This document shows, one piece after another, positions 15,734 through 37,277 of a stretch of 40,386 nucleotides of DNA. Within the stretch, counting starts at the first letter, position 1, and the number at the start of each line of letters is the position of its first letter. This DNA is from a virus (lineage: Duplodnaviria; Heunggongvirae; Uroviricota; Caudoviricetes). A program made the translations under genes and the position numbers. The stretch lies in the IMG/VR virus record IMGVR_UViG_649989946_000002. The stretch is one strand, 5' to 3'. Under the pieces are notes generated by a model. The model searched no databases. It worked only from the letters and a program-made list of their open reading frames with translations, and had not been told where the DNA came from.

Positions 15734-19414
<3,681 letters not shown>

Positions 19415-20928: not shown

Positions 20929-21228
20929 ATGACAAAAACAGTATCAACCAGTAAAAAACCCCGTAAACAGCATTCGCCTGAATTTCGCAGTGAAGCCCTG
21001 AAGCTTGCTGAACGCATCGGTGTTACTGCCGCAGCCCGTGAACTCAGCCTGTATGAATCACAACTCTACAACTGGCGCAGTAAACAGCAAAATCAGCAGA
21101 CGTCTTCTGAACGTGAACTGGAGATGTCTACCGAGATTGCACGTCTCAAACGCCAGCTGGCAGAACGGGATGAAGAGCTGGCTATCCTCCAAAAGGCCGC
21201 GACATACTTCGCGAAGCGCCTGAAATGA
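20929..21228 (+). CDS. insE: IS3 OrfA (InsE-like, HTH/leucine zipper)
   Basis: [54 protein letters not shown]... Confidence 0.9.
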
Positions 21229-22091
21229 AGTATGTCTTTATTGAAAAACATCAGGCTGAGTTCAGCATCAAAGCAATGTGCCGCGTGCTCCGGGTGGCCC
21301 GCAGCGGCTGGTATACGTGGTGTCAGCGGCGGACAAGGATAAGCACGCGTCAGCAGTTCCGCCAACACTGCGACAGCGTTGTCCTCGCGGCTTTTACCCG
21401 GTCAAAACAGCGTTACGGTGCCCCACGCCTGACGGATGAACTGCGTGCTCAGGGTTACCCCTTTAACGTAAAAACCGTGGCGGCAAGCCTGCGCCGTCAG
21501 GGACTGAGGGCAAAGGCCTCCCGGAAGTTCAGCCCGGTCAGCTACCGCGCACACGGCCTGCCTGTGTCAGAAAATCTGTTGGAGCAGGATTTTTACGCCA
21601 GTGGCCCGAACCAGAAGTGGGCAGGAGACATCACGTACTTACGTACAGATGAAGGCTGGCTGTATCTGGCAGTGGTCATTGACCTGTGGTCACGTGCCGT
21701 TATTGGCTGGTCAATGTCGCCACGCATGACGGCGCAACTGGCCTGCGATGCCCTGCAGATGGCGCTGTGGCGGCGTAAGAGGCCCCGGAACGTTATCGTT
21801 CACACGGACCGTGGAGGCCAGTACTGTTCAGCAGATTATCAGGCGCAACTGAAGCGGCATAATCTGCGTGGAAGTATGAGCGCAAAAGGTTGCTGCTACG
21901 ATAATGCCTGCGTGGAAAGCTTCTTTCATTCGCTGAAAGTGGAATGTATCCATGGAGAACACTTTATCAGCCGGGAAATAATGCGGGCAACGGTGTTTAA
22001 TTATATCGAATGTGATTACAATCGGTGGCGGCGGCACAGTTGGTGTGGCGGCCTCAGTCCGGAACAATTTGAAAACAAGAACCTCGCTTAG
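21225..22091 (+). CDS. insF: IS3 OrfB (InsF-like DDE transposase; made as OrfAB by -1 frameshift)
   Basis: 288-aa ORF overlapping orfA in the -1 frame; DDE integrase-core motifs (WAGDITYL..., HTDRGGQY..., [17 protein letters not shown]). Confidence 0.9.
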
Positions 22092-23196: not shown

Positions 23197-23401
23197 TCAT
23201 TTTCACTTTCTTAAATCTAACGACAGATGGCTAACATTTAAGTATTGTGAAATATTATCAAATGTAATCATCATTGATTTACAAAAGATACATTTTGCCC
23301 CGAAAGGATTTCTGTCAGAAACATCAAAAGATGATGTTCTATACTGAGAACCATGGCAACACGGGCATCTAAAGTGAATATGGTTTGTAATATTTTCTAC
23401 C

Positions 23402-23614
23402 TCAAAGTGCCACTACATGAACAGCTGCAGGGCCTTTAGGTCCGTTCTCAATACCAAATTCGACTTCCTGATTCTCAGTTAACGTTTTGAAATCGTTGCT
23501 CTGAATAGCTGAGAAATGCACAAACACATCTTTGCTACCATCTTTCGGCGTGATGAAACCAAAACCTTTTTCAGGGTTAAACCATTTCACTAAACCAGTC
23601 ATTTTGTTAGACAT
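23402..23614 (-). CDS. cspI: Cold-shock protein, CspI-like
   Basis: 70-aa [41 protein letters not shown]... with RNP1/RNP2 motifs. Confidence 0.9.
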
Positions 23615-23977
23615 TATTATTACCTTTTGAAGAAGTTAGCCCTTGGGCAGAATGGTCCGAAAAAAAATATCAGAGAGAAAAACCAACAAGGAAATCTCAA
23701 GAGGTACAAATAATAAAATTATAACAATGACTGCTTCAGATAATTTTGTAACAAACCAGAACACCATTAACGCATGATTAACCAACCATAGCAAGGATTA
23801 CTTTTGTAAAGAAAAACACACGAATGAAACAATAGCTTTATTTATTAATAAAACGTGTCATTCTGTCTAATGACCTTTTATCTTACCCTTAAGATTTCAA
23901 GGATTTTGACTCATGGAAGAGTCCTTTTTATTTAAATTTCACATTCAGCGCTAAAAATAATCCGATTTAATATTAAT

Positions 23978-26066: not shown

Positions 26067-26347
26067 GAGATTGTGGTGCTTTTTGTGGGAGTCATCCACT
26101 TACGCACTTTGTTTTGCCATGCCAGCAGTTAGCTTCTGCTGTAAAACTATTCATGCAGCAAACCTGCACTTCACCACAATGGTTAGCATACTTTTCCTGA
26201 TTAAGATTTTGCCAAATATGCTAGCCATTGTTTCATGTATTGGACCTCCTTACTTTTTATTAAAGAGATCCAATATTCACTACTCTGTCCGTATCTCTAC
26301 TCAGGCATCAGCCTTCTTCGTTATCGTATACAGACGAGCGATGAATT

Positions 26348-26563
26348 TTAATCAGTAATGATGACATTTGCTGCTGCAGGACCTTTAGCACCACTCTCTA
26401 TAGAGAAGGTAACCTTTTGACCTTCAAATAAGGTTCGATAATTATCATTCTGAATCGCAGAAAAATGCACAAACACATCTTTACTACCATCAACAGGAGA
26501 AATAAAGCCGAAACCTTTATCAGCGTTAAACCATTTTACTAAACCAGTCATTTTATTTGACAT
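26348..26563 (-). CDS. cspB: Cold-shock protein, CspB-like
   Basis: 71-aa [70 protein letters not shown]... Confidence 0.9.
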
Positions 26564-26862
26564 TCTACATTCCTTAACTTGAGCCTTTCGGCATAAATGG
26601 TTTGCATAACAGAAACGACTTCGTACTTAATTGGAGAGACTCAAAGAAGGAATAAGTGAATAACACCTGAAATGAGAACTGCTTTAGTAAACTACTTCGT
26701 ATATCGTCTGTTCTTCAAACCGACGCAATCATTAACGCATAGTTGAACATATGAAGCAATGTTTATTTTAGACATCCAGCCGTCTTCAACCCCATCAAAA
26801 AACTATAGCTTTCTTCAGGAACGTGTGTATAGTGCGCCAAGTTATCAGTATTAAGGAATTTT

Positions 26863-28277: not shown

Positions 28278-29097
28278 TTGCCAGCGCGCGATCGATAAAA
28301 CGAAATATCAGCTCCAGTTGGGAGCCATACTTATCTTCAAATGCCACTGTATCCGTATGCAGCTCGTTGTGATGCTTTCTGCACAAAGGCAACACAAAGA
28401 GATCATGTGCTTTTGTTCCCATTCCGCCCTGCCCGTGACCAATCAGATGATGCGGATCGTCGGCTGGCATACCGCAGCAAGCACACGGCTGTGTCTTAAC
28501 CCAACGTGTGTATTTCTCCTTAACCCAGCGGCGACGTTTAGGCAGCTTCATGAAAGATTCCGGAGACTCTGGATCAACGGTGATGCTTACCACCGTCTTT
28601 TCCTGTGGTGATTTTTGTTGCTGGTGGGCGTAAGGCAACGGTGCAAGATTTTTTGTGCGTTGTTTCAATATGCTGGTGGCGGTCTGCTCTCCCGGTACGA
28701 TGTCGCTTTCGCGGTACACCGAGCAGATTTTTTCCGCTGGTAATCCCAGCGAACGACGCGATACAGCCTCAGGTAGTGCATCCACCACCTGATTGCAGAC
28801 CGCCCACCAGGATAATTCAGCCAAAGATAATTCCCGCTCCTGCGTACCGCTTATTGCGTGACGGATGACGTCAATCACCCATGCTGTCAGATTTTGTTGA
28901 GCAAGCAGCTCCAGTGATTCCGATGTCTGGTCACGCAGTTGGTTGTCGCAGTGCCAGCACAACACCATTGCGCCGGTACCATAACGGTGAATGACTGTTT
29001 CAGTGTGATGGTAATCGCCATTAGGCCACTGGCAGGATGTAACATGACGTAATAGCCAGTCGGACAATGCGCCAACGCCGCCAGCAGCACGAATCAC
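28261..29097 (-). CDS. YdfU-like DUF968 protein with C-terminal HNH-like motif
   Basis: 278-aa ORF; C-terminus CACCGMPADDPHHLIGHGQGGMGTKAHDLFVLPLCRKHHNELH; ATG overlaps the upstream ORF stop (ATGA). Confidence 0.65.
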   Translation of the reverse strand: MIRAAGGVGALSDWLLRHVTSCQWPNGDYHHTETVIHRYGTGAMVLCWHCDNQLRDQTSESLELLAQQNLTAWVIDVIRHAISGTQERELSLAELSWWAVCNQVVDALPEAVSRRSLGLPAEKICSVYRESDIVPGEQTATSILKQRTKNLAPLPYAHQQQKSPQEKTVVSITVDPESPESFMKLPKRRRWVKEKYTRWVKTQPCACCGMPADDPHHLIGHGQGGMGTKAHDLFVLPLCRKHHNELHTDTVAFEDKYGSQLELIFRFIDRALAIGVLA

Positions 29098-29348
29098 CCG
29101 TTCGTTACTAAAAACGGCAGCAATGTTTTGTCTTCCGCCAGCGGCTGGCGAACGGCAGGAACGACTCCGGATGGCAGATTACGCATGCTTTTTGGTTCCG
29201 GTTCCACCAGCACTCGAGGATTATGAAATATCTGTATGGATTCACGGCCCGGCTTAAGGACCACCAGCCCAAGCTCAGGCACCAGAACAGGTCTAAGTAA
29301 TACCCGCACGTTACCTCCAGATCCGTTGCTGGAAAGTGCGGGACGCAC
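29094..29348 (-). CDS. Hypothetical protein (84 aa), possibly the N-terminal part of the DUF968 gene
   Basis: ORF whose stop overlaps the DUF968 ATG; low-complexity sequence, weak support. Confidence 0.3.
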   Translation of the reverse strand: MRPALSSNGSGGNVRVLLRPVLVPELGLVVLKPGRESIQIFHNPRVLVEPEPKSMRNLPSGVVPAVRQPLAEDKTLLPFLVTNG

Positions 29349-29589
29349 GTGGTGGGCGTTCGGAATAAGGCAGCCTGACAGAGATTATCCAGTGCCGATA
29401 GTCGAGACTGAGAGCTTTCTTAACCTCGAACCCGCGCCTGCGGTAAGAATGAATCAGCCATTCGGCCTGTTCTGCAGTGCATGGAGGGTGCTGGAACCAT
29501 TCAGACTTGAATGCGTGAGAATACCGCCCGTGCGTGCAGGCAAGAACGGGCGAATTATCAGAATTGTAATATTTTGCGTTGCGTGCCAT
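29311..29589 (-). CDS. Hypothetical protein (92 aa)
   Basis: ORF MARNAKYYNSDNSPVLACTHGRYSHAFKSEWFQHPPCTAEQAEWLIHSYRRRGFEVKKAL...; nin-region position. Confidence 0.4.
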   Translation of the reverse strand: MARNAKYYNSDNSPVLACTHGRYSHAFKSEWFQHPPCTAEQAEWLIHSYRRRGFEVKKALSLDYRHWIISVRLPYSERPPRASRTFQQRIWR

Positions 29590-29655
29590 CGGTTTTCTCC
29601 GGTGGCACGGTGTTACTCAGCGGGAGTTCAGCCCCGCGCAAGATTGTAGATGAGT

Positions 29656-29907
29656 TTATTCTCCTGAAAAAGCAGAAAAGCCAGCTTTTATTCCGATCTC
29701 TTTCAATGCCTGTAATGAAGTGACAAACTCACCTTCGCGCAAGATAAATCCGTCCGTGACCCGAGCATCCACAAAATTAATTAACGCAGCCCCATTCTTT
29801 CGCAAACACATAATGCGGTAATGACTAACAAGATTTCCATTTTCAACGCACACAGCATAGAGGCCATCTTCACAAAAAATTTTACGCAGTTCTTCGATGT
29901 TCATCAT
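29656..29907 (-). CDS. Hypothetical 83-aa protein (position and length fit Qin Rem; identity not verified)
   Basis: ORF MMNIEELRKIFCEDGLYAVCVENGNLVSHYRIMCLRKNGAALINFVDARVTDGFILREGEF... Confidence 0.5.
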   Translation of the reverse strand: MMNIEELRKIFCEDGLYAVCVENGNLVSHYRIMCLRKNGAALINFVDARVTDGFILREGEFVTSLQALKEIGIKAGFSAFSGE

Positions 29908-30123
29908 CAGAATCCTTCCGGATAATTAGCTCTCCCCTTTAAGGGACCATCCCTCTTATCCCTGCGCGCTACTTAAGTATTTTTGATTCTATTCCGGCAC
30001 CGTCCAGAACTTCAAACGCGTTGAAAATAAAAACAAAAACCCGCCGAAGCGGGTTAAGTGCGGGTGCGTTGAGGATGCCTGCCACATCAGAGGTGGCGAG
30101 GGATTTCTCCCCCGCCGGGTCTC

Positions 30124-30279
30124 TTACTCCTCAGGTTCGTAAGCTGTGAAGACAGCGACCTCCGTCTGGCCGGTTCGGATTCGTACCTCGCAGAGGTCTT
30201 TCCTCGTTACCAGTGCCGTCACTATGACGGTTAAACAGATGACGATCAGGGCGATTAACATCGCCTTTTGCTGCTTCAT
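30124..30279 (-). CDS. hokD: Hok-family membrane toxin HokD (RelF), 51 aa; absent from the ORF track
   Basis: Hand translation of the minus strand: MKQQKAMLIALIVICLTVIVTALVTRKDLCEVRIRTGQTEVAVFTAYEPEE*. Confidence 0.9.
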   Translation of the reverse strand: MKQQKAMLIALIVICLTVIVTALVTRKDLCEVRIRTGQTEVAVFTAYEPEE

Positions 30280-30350
30280 AGCCTGCTTCTCCTGTCAACG
30301 CAAAGCAGAAGTGTCACCTTCGGTGCGAAACAGAGATGTCATGCTTTGGT

Positions 30351-30638
30351 TCAGAGAATGCGTTTGACCGCCTCGCTATATACTTCCGAGCGTTCTCTTT
30401 TCCCAACAGAAATCACGAAAACGACAACTTTCTCGTCTATAACCTGGTATACAAGGCGATAGCCTGAAGACCGGAGCTTAATCTTGTAACAATCAGGCAT
30501 ACCACGGAGCTTGTTTGCTTCAATCCGGGGTGACTCAAGTACTTCAACCAGCTTCTTTTTCAACTGTTCACGTACCGTCGAGCCCAGCTTTCGCCATTCC
30601 TTTAGTGCCCGCTCGTCAAAATCCAGAAAATACGCCAT
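30351..30638 (-). CDS. relE: mRNA interferase toxin RelE
   Basis: 95-aa ORF MAYFLDFDERALKEWRKLGSTVREQLKKKLVEVLESPRIEANKLRGMPDCYKIKLRSSGYRLVYQVIDEKVVVFVISVGKRERSEVY... Confidence 0.95.
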   Translation of the reverse strand: MAYFLDFDERALKEWRKLGSTVREQLKKKLVEVLESPRIEANKLRGMPDCYKIKLRSSGYRLVYQVIDEKVVVFVISVGKRERSEVYSEAVKRIL

Positions 30639-30877
30639 CAGAGTTCATCCAGCGTCACACGTACTGGCTTAGGATTACGAAGCCGTTCTTTCACTATCTC
30701 CACAAGTTCAGCATCTTCATCACTCAGGAGTGTCTGTTTGAACGGCAAGCGTTCATTGTCAGCGATATACTCGAGCATGAGACGAAGCGCTTCAGAAGGA
30801 GTTACACCCATTTTTTCAAGCGCGGCGTAAGAACGCGCTTTAAGTTCATCGTCAATACGCAGGTTAATGCTACCCAT
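30638..30877 (-). CDS. relB: Antitoxin RelB
   Basis: 79-aa ORF MGSINLRIDDELKARSYAALEKMGVTPSEALRLMLEYIADNERLPFKQTLLSDEDAELVEIVKERL...; stop overlaps relE start. Confidence 0.95.
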   Translation of the reverse strand: MGSINLRIDDELKARSYAALEKMGVTPSEALRLMLEYIADNERLPFKQTLLSDEDAELVEIVKERLRNPKPVRVTLDEL

Positions 30878-30887
30878 GTCTTACACC

Positions 30888-30916
30888 TATTGTAATTACA
30901 AATGTCATTACAAGTA
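30888..30916 (-). promoter_or_regulatory. relBE operator (relO) / promoter region
   Basis: Adjacent imperfect palindromes TTGTAATTACAA and TTGTCATTACAAG immediately upstream of relB. Confidence 0.6.
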
Positions 30917-31359
30917 TCGCACTACAACATGCTTAGGGCAAGTCACGAAGGAAGTCAGAAAGTAGTCGTAAGAACGGTGATCACTGTCCGCTTTGTGCCA
31001 GGAGCAGCCATTGCTAAGTCCATCCTGTATTGTGCAGGTCAGCTCGTTTTTAAAGAGTCCGGCCATCATCTTACTGGTACAGACACCATATACTTTGTGA
31101 CGGTCAGGCTACATATGCACAACTCAACTTATTCATCTATTTTTTGCTTTAGCATGTCAGTGTTGCTTTCTCGTCGGCGGGTGAGCGGTGACCTGACCTG
31201 TCGATAAAGGAACGTAGCACGTTTTATGCAACACCCGCATGCGGCAGAAAATTATTGCCGAACGTTTACCCCTGTCAACAAGCTTTACTTTCTGAGGCGC
31301 GCCAGCCCGCGAGGAAAACAATCTGAACATCAAACAATTAATGACACAAGAAATACGAT

Positions 31360-31385
31360 TAAAGATTTTTTGTGCATGCCGATAG
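31360..31385 (+). promoter_or_regulatory. Sigma-28 (FliA)-type promoter upstream of flxA
   Basis: TAAAGATT-N10-GCCGATAG resembles the TAAAGTTT-N11-GCCGATAA consensus, about 25 nt upstream of the flxA ATG. Confidence 0.6.
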
Positions 31386-31408
31386 TGCTTTTTTAAAAGG
31401 AGAAATCT

Positions 31409-31726
31409 ATGTCTGTCACAATTCAGGGAAATACCTCAACCGTTATTTCAAACAACTCCGCCCCGGAAGGAACATCAGAAATAGCCAAAATCACAAGACA
31501 AATTCAGGTGCTGACTGAAAAGCTTGGGAAAATCTCATCGGAAGAGGGGATGACGACACAGCAGAAAAAAGAAATGGCTGCATTGGTACAGAAGCAAATT
31601 GAAAGCCTCAGGGCTCAACTGGAGCAGTTGTTAAGGCAGCAGGCAGAGAAAAAGAATAAAGACGCGACAGTTCAGCCTGATAAAAAGAAGAGAAAAAGAC
31701 GATACAAATACCGCTGGCACCATTGA
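31409..31726 (+). CDS. flxA: FlxA-like protein
   Basis: 105-aa ORF MSVTIQGNTSTVISNNSAPEGTSEIAKITRQIQVLTEKLGKISSEEGMTTQQKKEMAALVQKQIESL... with basic C-terminal tail. Confidence 0.8.
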   Translation: MSVTIQGNTSTVISNNSAPEGTSEIAKITRQIQVLTEKLGKISSEEGMTTQQKKEMAALVQKQIESLRAQLEQLLRQQAEKKNKDATVQPDKKKRKRRYKYRWHH

Positions 31727-31753
31727 TATTTACGTCTAAGTGACAGCCGTATT

Positions 31754-31776
31754 GTGGCCCTCATCGGGCCACTTTT
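31754..31776 (+). terminator. Rho-independent terminator after flxA
   Basis: GTGGCCC-TCATC-GGGCCAC followed by TTTT. Confidence 0.6.
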
Positions 31777-31939
31777 CGCCATCAGCCTTTTCTTTAAAGA
31801 CATATTATCTTTGTATCATTTCTGATAGTTAACATTACAAGATATAAGTAATGGACGCACTCCCAATTAGTCTATTTAAATCGCCACGAGTTTAACTGAC
31901 AACCCATGATCAATTATGAATTGCAACTATTTCTGTAGT

Positions 31940-33600
31940 CACTTTTGTGGGGACAGTCCACAAAACTGCCAACTTCCGCTTCTTGCTCTTAGCGGACATT
32001 AGCATAGGCTATTTACCATAACGCCTCATTACGCGCACCGCCCAGACTGACTCAGCGCGTTTCTGGCATATCCCCGGTAAAACAAGTAACAAACCACCCG
32101 AAAATGAACACCAGAAACGCGACTTAAGAATCTACCCTATGAATGGATATGCACTCAACCGAATCGATCTTGGTTTCAATCTATTTTATCGGGATCAGGC
32201 TTCTTTTTAGGTAACTTCGGGGGCTTAACTTGCTGATGACTTTGCGTTCGGCGCGTAAGCCAGGGATGGTCAGCTTTAGATTTAACATAGTATTTTGAGC
32301 GTAAATCAATACGGGCATTATCCACTCGTTCATGGACACTCTTTTCATCATCCAGTGGTATAGGCTCCGGGCCATCAACATACTTTTCCCAGCCCAGCGC
32401 TTTCCCGTCATACAGAACGTTAATTTCACCGTCAAAGTTCTCACATACAGTAACAACCGAATGCCTAAGTCGATATCCCCGGCCCTCACTGCGTACCTGA
32501 AACGCACTGCTTTTGTACTGGAAAGTGAGATTTTTAGACAGAACGCGCTTCGCCTGTAGGCTGAAGATATAACCCAGTTCCTCTTCAGAATGGTGCACAT
32601 CAAGATGAGCATTATCAGTAGTACGAGGCGACGTAGCGAACCGGTTGTTATAGGCTTCAATAAAGGTCGGCAACCATGCATTTGCTGTTTCAATATCACT
32701 GATATTCTGAAGCCGCATTTCTTTGACCAGCCTGTCCTGTAGTGTCTGATTGGCGCGCTCTACCCGCCCTTTTGCCTGCGGGCTGTTGGCATGGATTGGC
32801 TCGATGCCCTGTGTCTTTATCGCACGAGTGAACTGGGTCAGCTCACCTTCCCGCTCTGGGTTATTTACCCTGAATATACTGTGTCTATCAGAGTAGAGAG
32901 CGAGCGGTACGCCATGATCATTAAGGTAACCCCGGAGGGTTTCCATGTAAGCCCGGGTTGTTTCAGCAGGCACAAAACGCAACGCCATCAACGCACTGGT
33001 GGCATCATCAATGAAAACGATCAGTGTACATCTGGGGCCTCGATTTTCAAACCAGTCATGAGGTGAGCCATCAATCTGGATCAGTTCACCGTAAGATGGT
33101 CGTCGCATGCGGCGTTGATATATACGGGCAATTTTACGACGGCGTTCACGCCATAACCCCTCTTCTATCATCCACTTTCTGAGAGTTTCAACGGATAAAG
33201 ATAAACCGTGTATCTCGCGCAATTTTTCGCACGCAAACGTAGGTCCAAAATCAGCGTAACGGCCTTTGAGGAGTGAAATTACTGTTGCTCTGAATTCAGT
33301 AGAAAAGGAATTATTAGGATGCTTTCCACGTCGGTGGGAAACCAGACCAGAAGGCCCTTCATTTCTATACCGTTGCACCAGACGTTTAACCTGCCGAATA
33401 GAAATGCCAATGCGTGCCGCAGCTTGTTCCTGAGTAATATGTCGATTAATTGACTCCTGAATAATCTGAAGTCGGTGGAGTTCCTTATGACTCATCGTAA
33501 CAGTCTCTTTGATCATGAAAAATCCCCCAGAGAATTGTCTGGGGACATTTTAGAATGGTTCAAAGGGGACATTACAGCTTGGTGTTAACAATAGCCTGCT
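31940..33600 (-). mobile_element. Second IS element (rve/DDE transposase, IS481- or ISNCY-like); ends not resolved
   Basis: Single large transposase ORF flanked by non-coding DNA; GGGGACA-containing motifs near both flanks; no terminal inverted repeats could be confirmed by eye. Confidence 0.35.
32176..33516 (-). CDS. DDE-type (integrase-core, rve) transposase with N-terminal HTH
   Basis: 446-aa ORF: HTH (ITQEQAAARIGISIRQVKRLVQRY), DDE core (LIQIDGSPHDW..., LIVFIDDATS..., ALYSDRHSIF..., RVERANQTLQDRLVKEMR). Confidence 0.85.
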   Translation of the reverse strand: MIKETVTMSHKELHRLQIIQESINRHITQEQAAARIGISIRQVKRLVQRYRNEGPSGLVSHRRGKHPNNSFSTEFRATVISLLKGRYADFGPTFACEKLREIHGLSLSVETLRKWMIEEGLWRERRRKIARIYQRRMRRPSYGELIQIDGSPHDWFENRGPRCTLIVFIDDATSALMALRFVPAETTRAYMETLRGYLNDHGVPLALYSDRHSIFRVNNPEREGELTQFTRAIKTQGIEPIHANSPQAKGRVERANQTLQDRLVKEMRLQNISDIETANAWLPTFIEAYNNRFATSPRTTDNAHLDVHHSEEELGYIFSLQAKRVLSKNLTFQYKSSAFQVRSEGRGYRLRHSVVTVCENFDGEINVLYDGKALGWEKYVDGPEPIPLDDEKSVHERVDNARIDLRSKYYVKSKADHPWLTRRTQSHQQVKPPKLPKKKPDPDKID

Positions 33601-33969
33601 TCTCCTTGCCTTCCGGCACTCGCGACAGATTATGTTTAGACGACTGTCGTAGCGACGTATTTCTCCGTCAGGTAATGACCAGATAAGGTCCGGATCAACC
33701 ACAGCAGGTTTCTTCACCTTTGCCCTCGAGAGTTTTTTGCGGGCGTTTTGCCAGTCCTTACGCGCCTGTTCAGACGGGAATAACCCGTAACCAGAGCTGT
33801 ATACATCGCCACTGGCAACCAGCTCTCTGGCCAGAACGCTCATCAGATATCTTGTTGCCCCAGTTTTAGCTTCCAGTTGTCGTAACGTCTCGCGCCCACT
33901 CTGGCGTACGAGTTCCACCACCTGCCCTTTAATTTTTTCCCGCTCTTCTTGTGTAAAAACTTTTGCCAC
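33550..33969 (-). CDS. Hypothetical replication-module protein (position of a helicase-loader gene); C-terminus may be altered by the adjacent IS
   Basis: 139-aa ORF MAKVFTQEEREKIKGQVVELVRQSGRETLRQLEAKTGATRYLMSVLARELVASGDVY...; last codons lie in the IS-proximal sequence. Confidence 0.4.
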   Translation of the reverse strand: MAKVFTQEEREKIKGQVVELVRQSGRETLRQLEAKTGATRYLMSVLARELVASGDVYSSGYGLFPSEQARKDWQNARKKLSRAKVKKPAVVDPDLIWSLPDGEIRRYDSRLNIICRECRKARRSRLLLTPSCNVPFEPF

Positions 33970-34009
33970 AAGTCCTCCTGAACATTACTTTATACCCTAA
34001 AATCAACAC

Positions 34010-35029
34010 TTATCCCCTGAAACCAGGCGGAATTTCTGTATCCGGTTCAGAAATATGATTCACACAACGCTGTACAGGTGAACGTCCCAGGCGGATGACC
34101 AGTTCGTCCCATTTTTCGCGGAGTTTTGACGGGCTCATGATGTTTTTTACCCAGAATTGATCTCGCTGTACCCGACCAAACATTTCGCAAATTTGTCTGT
34201 GGCTTCTGCCATCCAGCATCCGCATTGTGCGCACGTCATTGGCCCAGGCTGTCCAGTTAGGCTCTTTTGGTCGCATGATCTCTCCATCGTCGCTGGCAGC
34301 CTGTTCGTAAAGGTTCACGATCCGCCCCCAAATCCACTGCGCACACGCCAAATCCTCCCTGCTACCCCACTGGCGTTTTTTCGCACTAAACACAACCGCG
34401 TCGGGGTTCCGGGTTAAAAAATCCTGTTCAGCGGTCTGCGGGTCCGGTTGCGAAGCTTCCGGACGAAAAGTGTTTTTATTCTCTGTAGTAATCTCTGTTG
34501 TATTCTCTGTAAGATCATCAGGCCATTTTGACCCGATGACATTGGGTCGTTTTGAACCAATGGAGCGTTTCATTTTGACCTCTTCCATCGTGTCATTTTG
34601 ACCTGATGGAGCGGCGCATTTTAAACCGATGGATTCGCTCAATTTGCCACCATCTAAAAGCTCGCTCCCGTAGTTGATCGTGTAGAAATTGGTCATATCG
34701 CGCTTTGATTTATTGAGCTTTTCACAACGCAAAAGCCCCAGCGTTTTCAGACTTGCAAACGCGCGCTTTAACGTTGACTCTGACCAGAATGGGAACTGTT
34801 CCAGCCATTGTTCCGTTGTGTTGTAAATCCAGCGAACACCATCACATTCCATGCCGGAATTGGTATCTCTCAACCAGTAATGCAACTGCTGCAACACAAT
34901 GGCTTCATTTAAGCCAATCTTCATCGCAAGCTGTGTGTTTATAACCAGTGGGCGTTCAGCAAAAAGAAGGCTCATAATTCCATCCAGCTTTTTGTTGGTA
35001 TTGCTGTCGATACGCAAGCTTGAAAGCAA
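34010..35029 (-). CDS. Replication initiator, lambda O-like (replisome organiser) with internal origin iterons
   Basis: 339-aa ORF in the O position downstream of the cro-like dicC; six 23-bp iterons lie within its coding sequence; true start may be the internal Met at 34975. Confidence 0.7.
   Translation of the reverse strand: MLSSLRIDSNTNKKLDGIMSLLFAERPLVINTQLAMKIGLNEAIVLQQLHYWLRDTNSGMECDGVRWIYNTTEQWLEQFPFWSESTLKRAFASLKTLGLLRCEKLNKSKRDMTNFYTINYGSELLDGGKLSESIGLKCAAPSGQNDTMEEVKMKRSIGSKRPNVIGSKWPDDLTENTTEITTENKNTFRPEASQPDPQTAEQDFLTRNPDAVVFSAKKRQWGSREDLACAQWIWGRIVNLYEQAASDDGEIMRPKEPNWTAWANDVRTMRMLDGRSHRQICEMFGRVQRDQFWVKNIMSPSKLREKWDELVIRLGRSPVQRCVNHISEPDTEIPPGFRG
34524..34662. repeat. Origin-of-replication iterons: 6 direct repeats, 23-bp period, consensus CATTTTGACC-N-GATGGAG
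   Basis: Repeat units start at 34524, 34548, 34571, 34594, 34617 and 34640 (CATTTTGACC / CGTTTTGAAC / CATTTTAAAC / CAATTTGCCA); adjacent A/T-rich stretch with 3x TCTCTGT at 34470-34520. Confidence 0.75.
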
Positions 35030-35477
35030 TTGCTTTTTCTATAAGTTCGTCAGTTTCACGATCCACTACGGCAGGATCAGCAAAAAGCAGTCCGGACTCC
35101 ACCACATCGCCATATTCTTTGTTTAACCCGGCGATCATGCACGTGATGCTTTTTCCGTCAGTAATTTCACGATACAACCTGAAATCACTAATCCGGATAG
35201 CCTCCATAATCGCAGGCACTAGCGCCGTGAACTTTTCACGCTTATCCCTGGTATCGATAGCCTTCCAGCGTTCGAATATCTTCACTCGATTAACACCAAG
35301 CGCTCGCTGATCAACCGCGCCACCTTCATCTGTGACACGCTGAACATCGATGTTCGGGCGCTCTTTCAAAGCCCAGAATGCTTCAGTGATTAATATCGTC
35401 GCCTGCTCCTGTGTCATTCCTGGTCGACATATCCAGGCATCCAGAGCCTCACGAGCCTGTTCAGGAGTGATTTTCAT
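34956..35477 (-). CDS. Hypothetical early-region protein in the cII/YdaT position
   Basis: 173-aa ORF MKITPEQAREALDAWICRPGMTQEQATILITEAFWALKER... between dicC and the O-like gene. Confidence 0.5.
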   Translation of the reverse strand: MKITPEQAREALDAWICRPGMTQEQATILITEAFWALKERPNIDVQRVTDEGGAVDQRALGVNRVKIFERWKAIDTRDKREKFTALVPAIMEAIRISDFRLYREITDGKSITCMIAGLNKEYGDVVESGLLFADPAVVDRETDELIEKAIAFKLAYRQQYQQKAGWNYEPSFC

Positions 35478-37219: not shown

Positions 37220-37277
37220 TTTCTGGTGACGTTTGGCGGTATCAGTTTTACTCCGTGACTGCTCTGCCGCCCTTTTT
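37220..37277 (+). ncRNA. dicF: DicF small regulatory RNA (ftsZ/division-inhibiting sRNA) including its terminator hairpin
   Basis: TTTCTGGTGACGTTTGGCGGTATCAGTTTTACTCCGTGACTGCTCTGCCGCCCTTTTT matches the DicF sequence as recalled; between ydfC and dicB. Confidence 0.85.

Follow-up and report, generated by a model that had tools for sequence, protein, structure and literature searches.

The 40,386-nt stretch of DNA analysed here, the IMG/VR virus record IMGVR_UViG_649989946_000002 (hereafter the window), is a Qin-type lambdoid prophage, as judged from the set of genes around a transposase gene, with hokD, relE, relB, ydfV and flxA on one side and DUF977, O-like, YdaT-like, Cro/CI and DicF genes on the other. 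Our analysis indicates that this transposase gene very probably belongs to a 3,298-bp transposon of the IS1202 insertion sequence (IS) family, in the clade labelled 'ISEsa1', which carries passenger genes, inserted at hokD and later suffered a deletion in its flank. A preliminary description of the sequence had recognized the transposase and proposed an IS of about 1.8 kb (31780–33610) between flxA and the replication genes, inserted in the replication module. A mobile element is indeed present, as prophages without it exist, but it is longer than proposed and includes flxA, ydfV, relB and relE as passengers. Nor did it insert in the replication module; its target is the Shine-Dalgarno/start region of the Qin-type hok/sok (hokD) locus, which lies about 1.8 kb downstream of DUF977 in an uninterrupted prophage.

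Ends, target and empty site of the transposon

The element and its target are delimited by the following features:

30293–33590, minus strand: whole transposon, 3,298 bp (3,301 bp in most other genomes), absent from the collinear prophage of Escherichia coli 2 HS-C
33521–33590, minus strand: left end (left inverted repeat, IRL), starting 5'-TGTTAACACCAAGCTGTAATGTCCCC at 33590
30293–30350, minus strand: right end (right inverted repeat, IRR), ending ...CTTCTGCTTTGCGTTGACA-3' at 30293 and occupying the 58 nt past the relE stop codon
33591–33605, minus strand: target-site duplication, copy 1, GGAGAAGCAGGCTAT, flush with the left terminus
30278–30292, minus strand: target-site duplication, copy 2, GGAGAAGCAGGCTAT, flush with the right terminus
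30124–30279, minus strand: hokD, the target gene, downstream of relE and cut off from its own promoter, mok and sok leader
33591–33619, minus strand: last 29 nt of the hok/sok leader, the sole part of it left in the window

Read along the minus strand, the order is IRL, transposase gene (tnp), flxA and ydfV (both on the opposite strand), relB, relE and IRR. The two 15-bp sequences are perfect direct repeats that abut both termini. They comprise the Shine-Dalgarno sequence of hokD through the AT of its start codon; the sequence up to the hokD ATG thus reads ...CTTCTGCTTTGCGTTGACA, then GGAGAAGCAGGCTAT, then G, and the duplicated Shine-Dalgarno sequence and AT give hokD its translation start right after the right end. 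The hokD open reading frame (ORF) lies on the same strand as tnp, 3.3 kb downstream, with NCBIfam hokD matches below cut-off.

When one end is inverted, IRL and IRR agree in 22 of 30 bases, which is the single best match to IRL on either strand of the 40-kb window; among 200 shuffled windows the best match never reached 22 (maximum 21, in four of them). The inverted repeats are imperfect, begin with TGT at 33590 and finish with ACA at 30293, as in the IS1202 family, and both ends carry AATGTCCCC-type blocks at positions 18–26 and 42–50. In the left end these subterminal repeats occupy 33565–33573 and 33541–33549, and in the right end they appear in degenerate form at 30309–30318 and 30334–30342. 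They are kept in six elements with verified duplications, whose six end pairs align well. The preliminary description had pointed to GGGGACA motifs near both flanks. On the left flank the motifs at 33541–33547 and 33565–33571 are real and form the 24-nt-spaced subterminal repeat (family D6 in our repeat search), and a further GGGGACA, in the palindrome described below, marks no right end. It had also reported no convincing terminal inverted repeats within 31780–33610, correctly so, because the right end at 30293 falls outside this interval; our own repeat search of the interval yielded no convincing right end either.

The left boundary was compared between the window, plasmid copies and 78 loci (one genome per species), and its position at 33590 is identical to the base in more than eight loci with unrelated flanks. 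An exact-match scan of metagenome and viral contigs for the left-end 26-mer returned 147 further occurrences with 43 distinct flanks. The right end followed by a matching duplication was also found at loci L087, L037 and L075.

To reconstruct the empty site, we joined the leader found left of IRL in Shigella flexneri (L017; Rfam sok, 104.1 bits) to the hokD of the window with a single copy of the 15-mer, and used the resulting 538 nt as a query against complete E. coli genomes. The reconstruction is present without interruption in many of them, at 98.9% identity. In the Qin-type prophage of E. coli 2 HS-C, the gene order is dicB, ydfA, repressor, Cro, YdaT, O protein, DUF977 (423 bp), small ORFs, hokD, rem, ydfU and Q, with no transposase, flxA, ydfV, relB or relE. 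Here the leader is contiguous with hokD, the Rfam sok match (107.8 bits) abuts hokD, and GGAGAAGCAGGCTAT occurs once. Outside the element, the window and the 2 HS-C prophage are collinear on either side. L017, which keeps the full leader, differs from 2 HS-C only by the insertion and a 15/16-bp overlap that corresponds to the duplication; in the window itself, Rfam sok has no match. Alignment to a related prophage lacking the insertion, the check suggested in the preliminary description, has thus defined the target, the 15-bp duplication and the extent of the element.

Transposase, cargo and recurrent insertion at hok genes

The genes carried between the two ends are:

33516–32176, minus strand: transposase gene (tnp), 446 amino acids (aa), intact ORF, NCBIfam NF033594
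31409–31726, plus strand: flxA, passenger, Pfam FlxA, not in the empty-site prophage
30902–31207, plus strand: ydfV, an annotated ORF in the element that overlaps the region upstream of relB
30638–30877, minus strand: relB antitoxin gene, NF008412 (133 bits, cut-off 96)
30351–30638, minus strand: relE toxin gene, TIGR02385 (54.7 bits, cut-off 27.9), directly adjoining IRR

In profile searches against NCBIfam, Pfam and Rfam, the transposase matched NF033594, 'ISNCY family transposase', with 459.9 bits over model positions 1–365 of 368 (cut-off 250 bits), together with Pfam HTH_28/29/23/32 and rve_3, in agreement with the rve-type DDE transposase of the preliminary description. A single transposase of 400–500 aa with one or more N-terminal helix-turn-helix domains and a DDE/RNase-H core is a trait of the IS1202 family, and the RefSeq name for this gene, annotated in hundreds of E. 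coli genomes, is 'IS1202-like element ISEsa1 family transposase'. The 446-aa ORF is also found on Klebsiella and Enterobacter plasmids, with only a handful of residue differences and 99.3% identity across residues 1–430 by tblastn; the end of the alignment at residue 430 is probably due to low-complexity filtering of a lysine/proline-rich tail. We rejected two indications that the gene might be damaged. The O26 copy is flagged 'missing C-terminus' by the annotation pipeline PGAP, but 446 aa is the length of plasmid copies annotated as intact; and the 2-bp length difference to other genomes, from which a frameshift could be suspected, sits in homopolymers of flxA. The 15-bp duplication fits the subgroup-specific lengths of the IS1202 family (5–6, 15–17 or 27–28 bp). 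Members of this family are compact, however (1.3–2.0 kb, with tnp only and in a few cases one passenger), whereas the element described here has 3,298 bp and four passenger genes. The term that suits it best is passenger-carrying IS, or small transposon, of this family.

Among the passengers, relB precedes relE with a 1-nt overlap, as expected of a type II toxin-antitoxin module, and the RelB proteins of E. coli O26:H11 strain 11368 and of the copy on the IncHI2 plasmid share one RefSeq accession. ydfV had no family match in the profile searches. Two 1-bp homopolymer deletions shift the frame at the 3' end of flxA, yielding 105 aa instead of the 110 aa in strain 11368. Relative to that strain, the window has four 1-base homopolymer deletions, at about 29060, 31366, 31687 and 31694, a pattern that looks like long-read sequencing error and not like biology; such deletions explain why the element measures 3,298 bp and not 3,301 bp as usual.

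Related elements occur in a range of hosts. On the IncHI2 plasmid pGW1 of Cronobacter sakazakii (L087), a 6,093-bp element with the same end pair and a perfect duplication, GGAGAAGAAGGCCAT, carries tnp, an inserted ISEsa2, genes for a cytochrome b and a cation-diffusion facilitator, relB and relE. It is inserted at the homologous position of another hok gene, an R1-like one, which it separates from its leader. A 4,275-bp element of Scandinavium hiltneri (L037) has a perfect 15-bp duplication at a non-hok site, with genes for a TacA-like antitoxin and a GNAT toxin among its cargo, beside the right end. A third element (L075) measures 2,575 bp, with relBE beside the right end and a duplication that matches in 13 of 15 positions. 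Cargo-free copies are found in a Chromatiales metagenome-assembled genome (L033; 1,437 bp, perfect 15-bp duplication) and in Hahella (nine copies of 1,449 bp, each with a 15–17-bp duplication). Metagenome and viral contigs contain further hok-flanked copies of 4,237, 4,600 and 7,694 bp with matching duplications, and one viral contig (L204, 1345–4645) holds a 3,301-bp relBE/flxA transposon, 99.6% identical and with the same termini, at a non-hok site beside a prophage Q antiterminator gene. Every cargo-bearing element examined has a type II toxin-antitoxin pair directly inside its right end, namely relBE in the window, L075, L087 and L021, and the TacA-like/GNAT pair in L037. The middle cargo varies: flxA; cytochrome b and the cation-diffusion facilitator; GrpB and a hexapeptide acetyltransferase; or a 333-aa orphan ORF.

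On pKpQIL-type and related plasmids of Klebsiella, Enterobacter and Serratia (L002–L006, L085), a 99%-identical transposase module lies beside the nickel-resistance cluster ncrABCY, near Tn4401/blaKPC. Some of these copies have a hok leader to the left, often split by ISKpn38 or ISKpn28. A right end was sought downstream, on the side of the ncr cluster, and none was found within 20 kb; the pKpQIL-type copy appears to be truncated or rearranged.

A hok/sok leader borders the left end on its outer side in many independent loci. These flanks score 81–104 bits with Rfam sok (RF01794), the match ending exactly at the junction, and they close with the hok Shine-Dalgarno sequence and AT or ATG. At the Rfam gathering threshold, the IncHI2, L020, L038 and L021 leaders went undetected, and their hok identity is based on Hok ORFs and leader similarity. 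The leaders resemble each other over only about 75–185 nt (77–88% identity) and lie in different surroundings, while the elements stay 91–99% identical, from which it follows that separate hok loci were hit. About 10 of some 19 independent contexts in the species-representative genomes are at a hok Shine-Dalgarno/start region, and the metagenome and viral contigs, with their 43 distinct flanks, contain at least 10 distinct hok leaders. The hok insertions all fall at one nucleotide position, in most cases with the 15-mer about 16 nt past a conserved leader hairpin, and the left end points toward the leader in all but L020, an inverted copy next to an intact R1-like hok. Non-hok sites are used as well (L037, L075, L204 and several singletons), and the nine copies of the Hahella relatives show no hok preference. 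Because random insertion followed by selection would not repeat the same base, we favour sequence-directed targeting by the enterobacterial lineage.

Two further arrangements were seen at hok sites. In L021 (2891–2936) and one metagenome/viral locus, a relE-bearing right end is followed by 10–15 bp of hok Shine-Dalgarno sequence and then a second left end; such tandem junctions suggest either repeated insertion at one target or a dimer- or circle-like junction. In L004 (about 2350–2426) and one metagenome/viral locus, an end of the IS481-family element ISKpn28 (...GAACTTACACA) abuts the left edge of the hok 15-16-mer (GGAG...), and a second, related transposase family may therefore favour this site.

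Going one step further, we are somewhat inclined to regard the enterobacterial branch as a site-specific transposon that would use the hok start as its attachment site, carry relBE- or tacAT-like pairs by its right end and rewire hok, with relBEF as the product of one such event and the curated ISEsa1 as a truncated description of the same element. If so, each insertion would free a type I toxin from its antisense control and put it behind an incoming type II module.

Alternative histories and later deletions

It is conceivable that the present arrangement arose in several steps, for example when a relBE remnant with its IRR and a tnp element, residing at separate hok loci, were joined by homologous recombination. 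The 15-bp repeat is a conserved hok motif that two hok loci could share without any duplication, the cargo between the transposase module and relBE is variable, the tandem junctions of IRR, 15 bp and IRL exist, and Siguier et al. invoke intra-replicon recombination for IS1202 copies that lack repeats. We nevertheless consider such a history improbable: the leader beside IRL and the hokD gene beside IRR make up exactly one locus, whose two halves adjoin each other at this very prophage position when the element is absent; IncHI2 has the same series from IRL to relBE and IRR, again with a matching duplication, in another hok; and the architecture is also found at non-hok sites with perfect 15-bp duplications, which recombination between hok loci could not make.

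A plain 1.6-kb IS (ISEsa1, about 31973/31981–33590) between flxA and DUF977, with flxA, ydfV and relBE as resident genes, is less probable still. This alternative and the palindrome noted in the preliminary description concern two features:

31973–32175, minus strand: conserved non-coding tail of the transposase module, ending in a hairpin (31973–31998)
31943–31965, strand not assigned: palindrome TTTTGTGG-GGACAGT-CCACAAAA, in variable cargo just past the transposase module

The block is conserved across many contexts, it bears the RefSeq ISEsa1-family label, and Harmer et al. 2023 (PMC10132070) give ISEsa1 as an element of 1,609 bp with 15/22 inverted repeats and a 439-aa transposase. Similarity toward the flxA side ends at 31973–31985 across eight different contexts, at the hairpin, which reads TGTCCGC-N12-GCGGA(A/C)(G/A) in the window and TGTCCGC-N12-GCGGACA in most copies. 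We nevertheless rejected this position as a right end. It agrees with IRL in only 12 of 30 bases, and no target duplication was found there in any of the eight contexts, as Harmer et al. (PMC10132070) likewise report no detectable duplication for ISEsa1. Moreover, the empty-site prophage lacks the whole 3.3 kb and not just 1.6 kb, and in L037 and L087 the sequence past the border falls inside elements with verified duplications. By these comparisons, 31973–31985 is best read as the border between a conserved module and variable cargo, not as a transposon end. The module-end hairpin harbours an inserted copy of the IS110-family element ISEsa2 in pGW1 (15837–17327) and also in L007, L010, L013 and L020. 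From the left end of pGW1 to its ISEsa2 junction there are 1,610 bp, which suggests a source for the published length; the curated ISEsa1 right end may be the ISEsa2 junction. In the window, a right inverted repeat about 1.6 kb from the left end, as curated for ISEsa1, is not found at 31973–31981.

The palindrome had been reported 9 nt away, at 31934–31956; it exists, and it is no element end. We rejected it both as a terminus and as a transposase-binding site, since its GGGGACA points the wrong way for a right end, and by eye it aligns poorly with IRR (about 10 of 26 bases). On the minus-strand transcript, the palindrome and the module hairpin fold into two neighbouring stem-loops (−26.4 kcal/mol, z = −3.06).

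That the transposase is a phage-owned or domesticated gene of Qin-type prophages, a condition under which the preliminary description would have withdrawn the IS, can be dismissed with near certainty: its single-copy presence at one fixed position in about 790 E. coli genomes and its co-orientation with the early-right operon, where 33 nt separate it from the DUF977 fusion ORF upstream, would fit, but near-identical copies sit in unrelated contexts on plasmids of Klebsiella, Enterobacter and Serratia and in other genera, otherwise collinear prophages lack tnp, and the element has defined ends and a duplication.

Several observations weigh against the transposon that we prefer. The subterminal repeats of IRR, GTGTCACC and GATGTCAT, are degenerate relative to those of the left end. 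The L204 copy is flanked by a 6-bp repeat (CGCCTT) only and not by 15 bp; its flank is short and the empty site diverged, with no match among plasmids and E. coli relatives only 82% identical, too diverged at the junction for a duplication to be recognized. On many plasmids the 1.6-kb transposase module has no recognisable right end within 20 kb. E. coli genomes have the element in a median of one and a maximum of three places, at one ancestral position, and as a single copy at an inherited position it gives no sign of current activity. Finally, transposition of this clade is deduced from sequence and not from experiment. The tnp ORF, both ends and the duplication are all intact in the window, and the element may still be mobile.

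The left flank was changed by a later event, which created one further feature:

33550–33969, minus strand: DUF977 fusion ORF, 139 aa; residues 1–120 native, residues 121–139 from the leader remnant and IRL

The preliminary description rightly noted that this ORF ends in element-proximal sequence, the last 19 residues being those derived from the hok-leader remnant and the left end, and suspected that the insertion had disrupted the replication module. The truncation is instead due to a separate 1.8-kb deletion next to the left end, and none of the present observations has a bearing on a replication origin. Residues 1–120 differ from the uninterrupted prophage by four substitutions; compared with 2 HS-C and L017, the window lacks 1.8 kb, from DUF977 codon 120 to the point where only 29 nt of the leader remain. 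Lost with it were the 3' part of the DUF977 gene, several small ORFs and all but these 29 nt of the hok leader, with sok and the promoter. The breakpoints share a 10-nt microhomology, GTGCC(G/A)GAAG, of which the window copy is GTGCCGGAAG at 33610–33619. A count over 5,426 complete E. coli genomes gave 105 with the DUF977-to-left-end junction of the window, 678 with the full hok leader adjoining the left end and 360 with the junction of K-12. In K-12, a 2.84-kb deletion (window 32361–35197) took the left end and the first ~385 tnp codons together with DUF977 and the O-like gene (MG1655, L086 3675–4137, corresponding to window 32176–32360 and 35198 onward). K-12 'ydfW' consists of the last 49 tnp codons (window 32176–32325) and is fused near 'ydfX', a remnant of the YdaT-like gene. 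Over 28506–32360, window and K-12 are 99.7% identical.

Taken together, the following course of events very probably explains the window. The DDE transposase, with two N-terminal helix-turn-helix domains and an RNase-H-like core, would bind the paired AATGTCCCC-type repeats of each end, cut at the TGT/ACA termini and join the element to a target cut with a 15–17-nt stagger. A single event at the hok/sok Shine-Dalgarno/start region of a Qin-type prophage duplicated GGAGAAGCAGGCTAT and left the hok promoter, mok start and sok gene upstream of the left end, and the duplicated Shine-Dalgarno sequence and AT restored the start of hokD, making it the third gene behind relBE in a relB-relE-hokD operon. 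In the lineage of the window, the 1.8-kb microhomology deletion later fused DUF977 to the left end; in K-12, the other, 2.84-kb deletion removed the left end and most of tnp, leaving ydfW. This gives the much-studied relBE locus of E. coli a base-resolved origin, as transposon cargo, with hokD having lost its control by mok and sok, and ydfW and ydfX of K-12 being debris of the insertion and deletion history. The result matters for the interpretation of relBE and hokD deletion strains and of their polar effects.

Elsewhere in the window, 21225–22091 encodes an IS3-family transposase orfB (339 bits), presumably the 'first IS' implied when the preliminary description called the present element the second. 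DicF small RNA (37221–37272) and cspA-type thermoregulator leaders (23356–23761 and 26332–26724) were also found, as expected for a Qin-type prophage.

Relation to known systems

The closest relative by name, ISEsa1, an ISfinder entry of the IS1202 family formerly assigned to ISNCY, has a transposase of the same clade, and the left end of the window element is the same as that of the Cronobacter sakazakii IncHI2 plasmid copy. Taking the Cronobacter-plasmid type as a proxy for the ISfinder reference, the window copy is about 91% identical in nucleotides and 93% in amino acids, a divergence that, under the ISfinder naming criteria, would probably make it a distinct element. The unit with matching ends and a 15-bp duplication is 3.3 kb long with four passengers, compared to the published 1,609 bp, and Harmer et al. 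2023 (PMC10132070) placed ISEsa1 in a separate small subgroup 'with no detectable TSD' (target-site duplication). ISEsa1-type elements, listed so far without a duplication, are flanked by 15–17-bp duplications; their right end lies far off, and on IncHI2 plasmids they mobilize genes for metal transport and for toxin-antitoxin pairs. The two papers on the IS1202 family, including Harmer et al. (PMC10132070), describe duplication classes of 5–6, 15–17 and 27–28 bp, TGT/ACA ends, few passenger-carrying members and one subgroup that targets dif/pdif; neither hok nor toxin-antitoxin cargo is mentioned in them. The ISTde1 subgroup is alike in its TGT...ACA termini, a block near position 20 and 15–17-bp duplications, but these papers describe for it neither the hok targeting nor the toxin-antitoxin cargo seen here. 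With Tn7-like transposons the element shares no more than the TGT/ACA termini and the repeated sites inside them (Harmer et al., PMC10132070): 30293–33590 holds one transposition ORF, in contrast to TnsB with TnsA, TnsC and a target selector.

For K-12 relBEF, relB, relE and hokD are co-transcribed (Gotfredsen and Gerdes 1998, as cited in PMC5120126), and Ramisetty and Sudhakari 2019, citing earlier work, have relBE integrated into an ancestral, longer hokD/mok frame and derived from plasmids. Text related to PMC5120126 treats such modules as moving without a defined vehicle, and no vehicle is named in those portions of the K-12 relBEF literature that were available. The window keeps the left end and the intact transposase that K-12 has lost, so that vehicle, ends and duplication can be read. 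A recent survey of Hok mentions IS elements near hok loci in general terms only, and a full-text search of open-access papers returned nothing that links ISEsa1 or IS1202 with relBE or hok. The element family itself is already known as IS1202; its delimitation here, the relBE/flxA cargo, the 15-bp duplication and the recurrent hok targeting appear to be undescribed so far.

Type II toxin-antitoxin modules are also carried by Tn3-family transposons, as integral passengers beside the transposition functions. These use another type of transposase and another mechanism. In the element described here, the pair lies next to the right end, and the site of insertion is itself a second toxin-antitoxin locus. 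A parallel for the targeting is the ISAba32/ISAjo2 subgroup of the IS1202 family, some members of which have a passenger gene. Both are one-protein elements whose insertions keep one orientation and a set distance to a specific short sequence, the left end being the nearer one. ISAba32/ISAjo2 elements produce 5–6-bp duplications at Xer sites (dif/pdif XerC/D), whereas the flank in the window is a hok leader with its Shine-Dalgarno sequence and the duplication, at the hok start, is 15 bp long. After the dif/pdif sites, the hok start would thus be the second case of precise targeting by a one-protein transposon of the IS1202 family.

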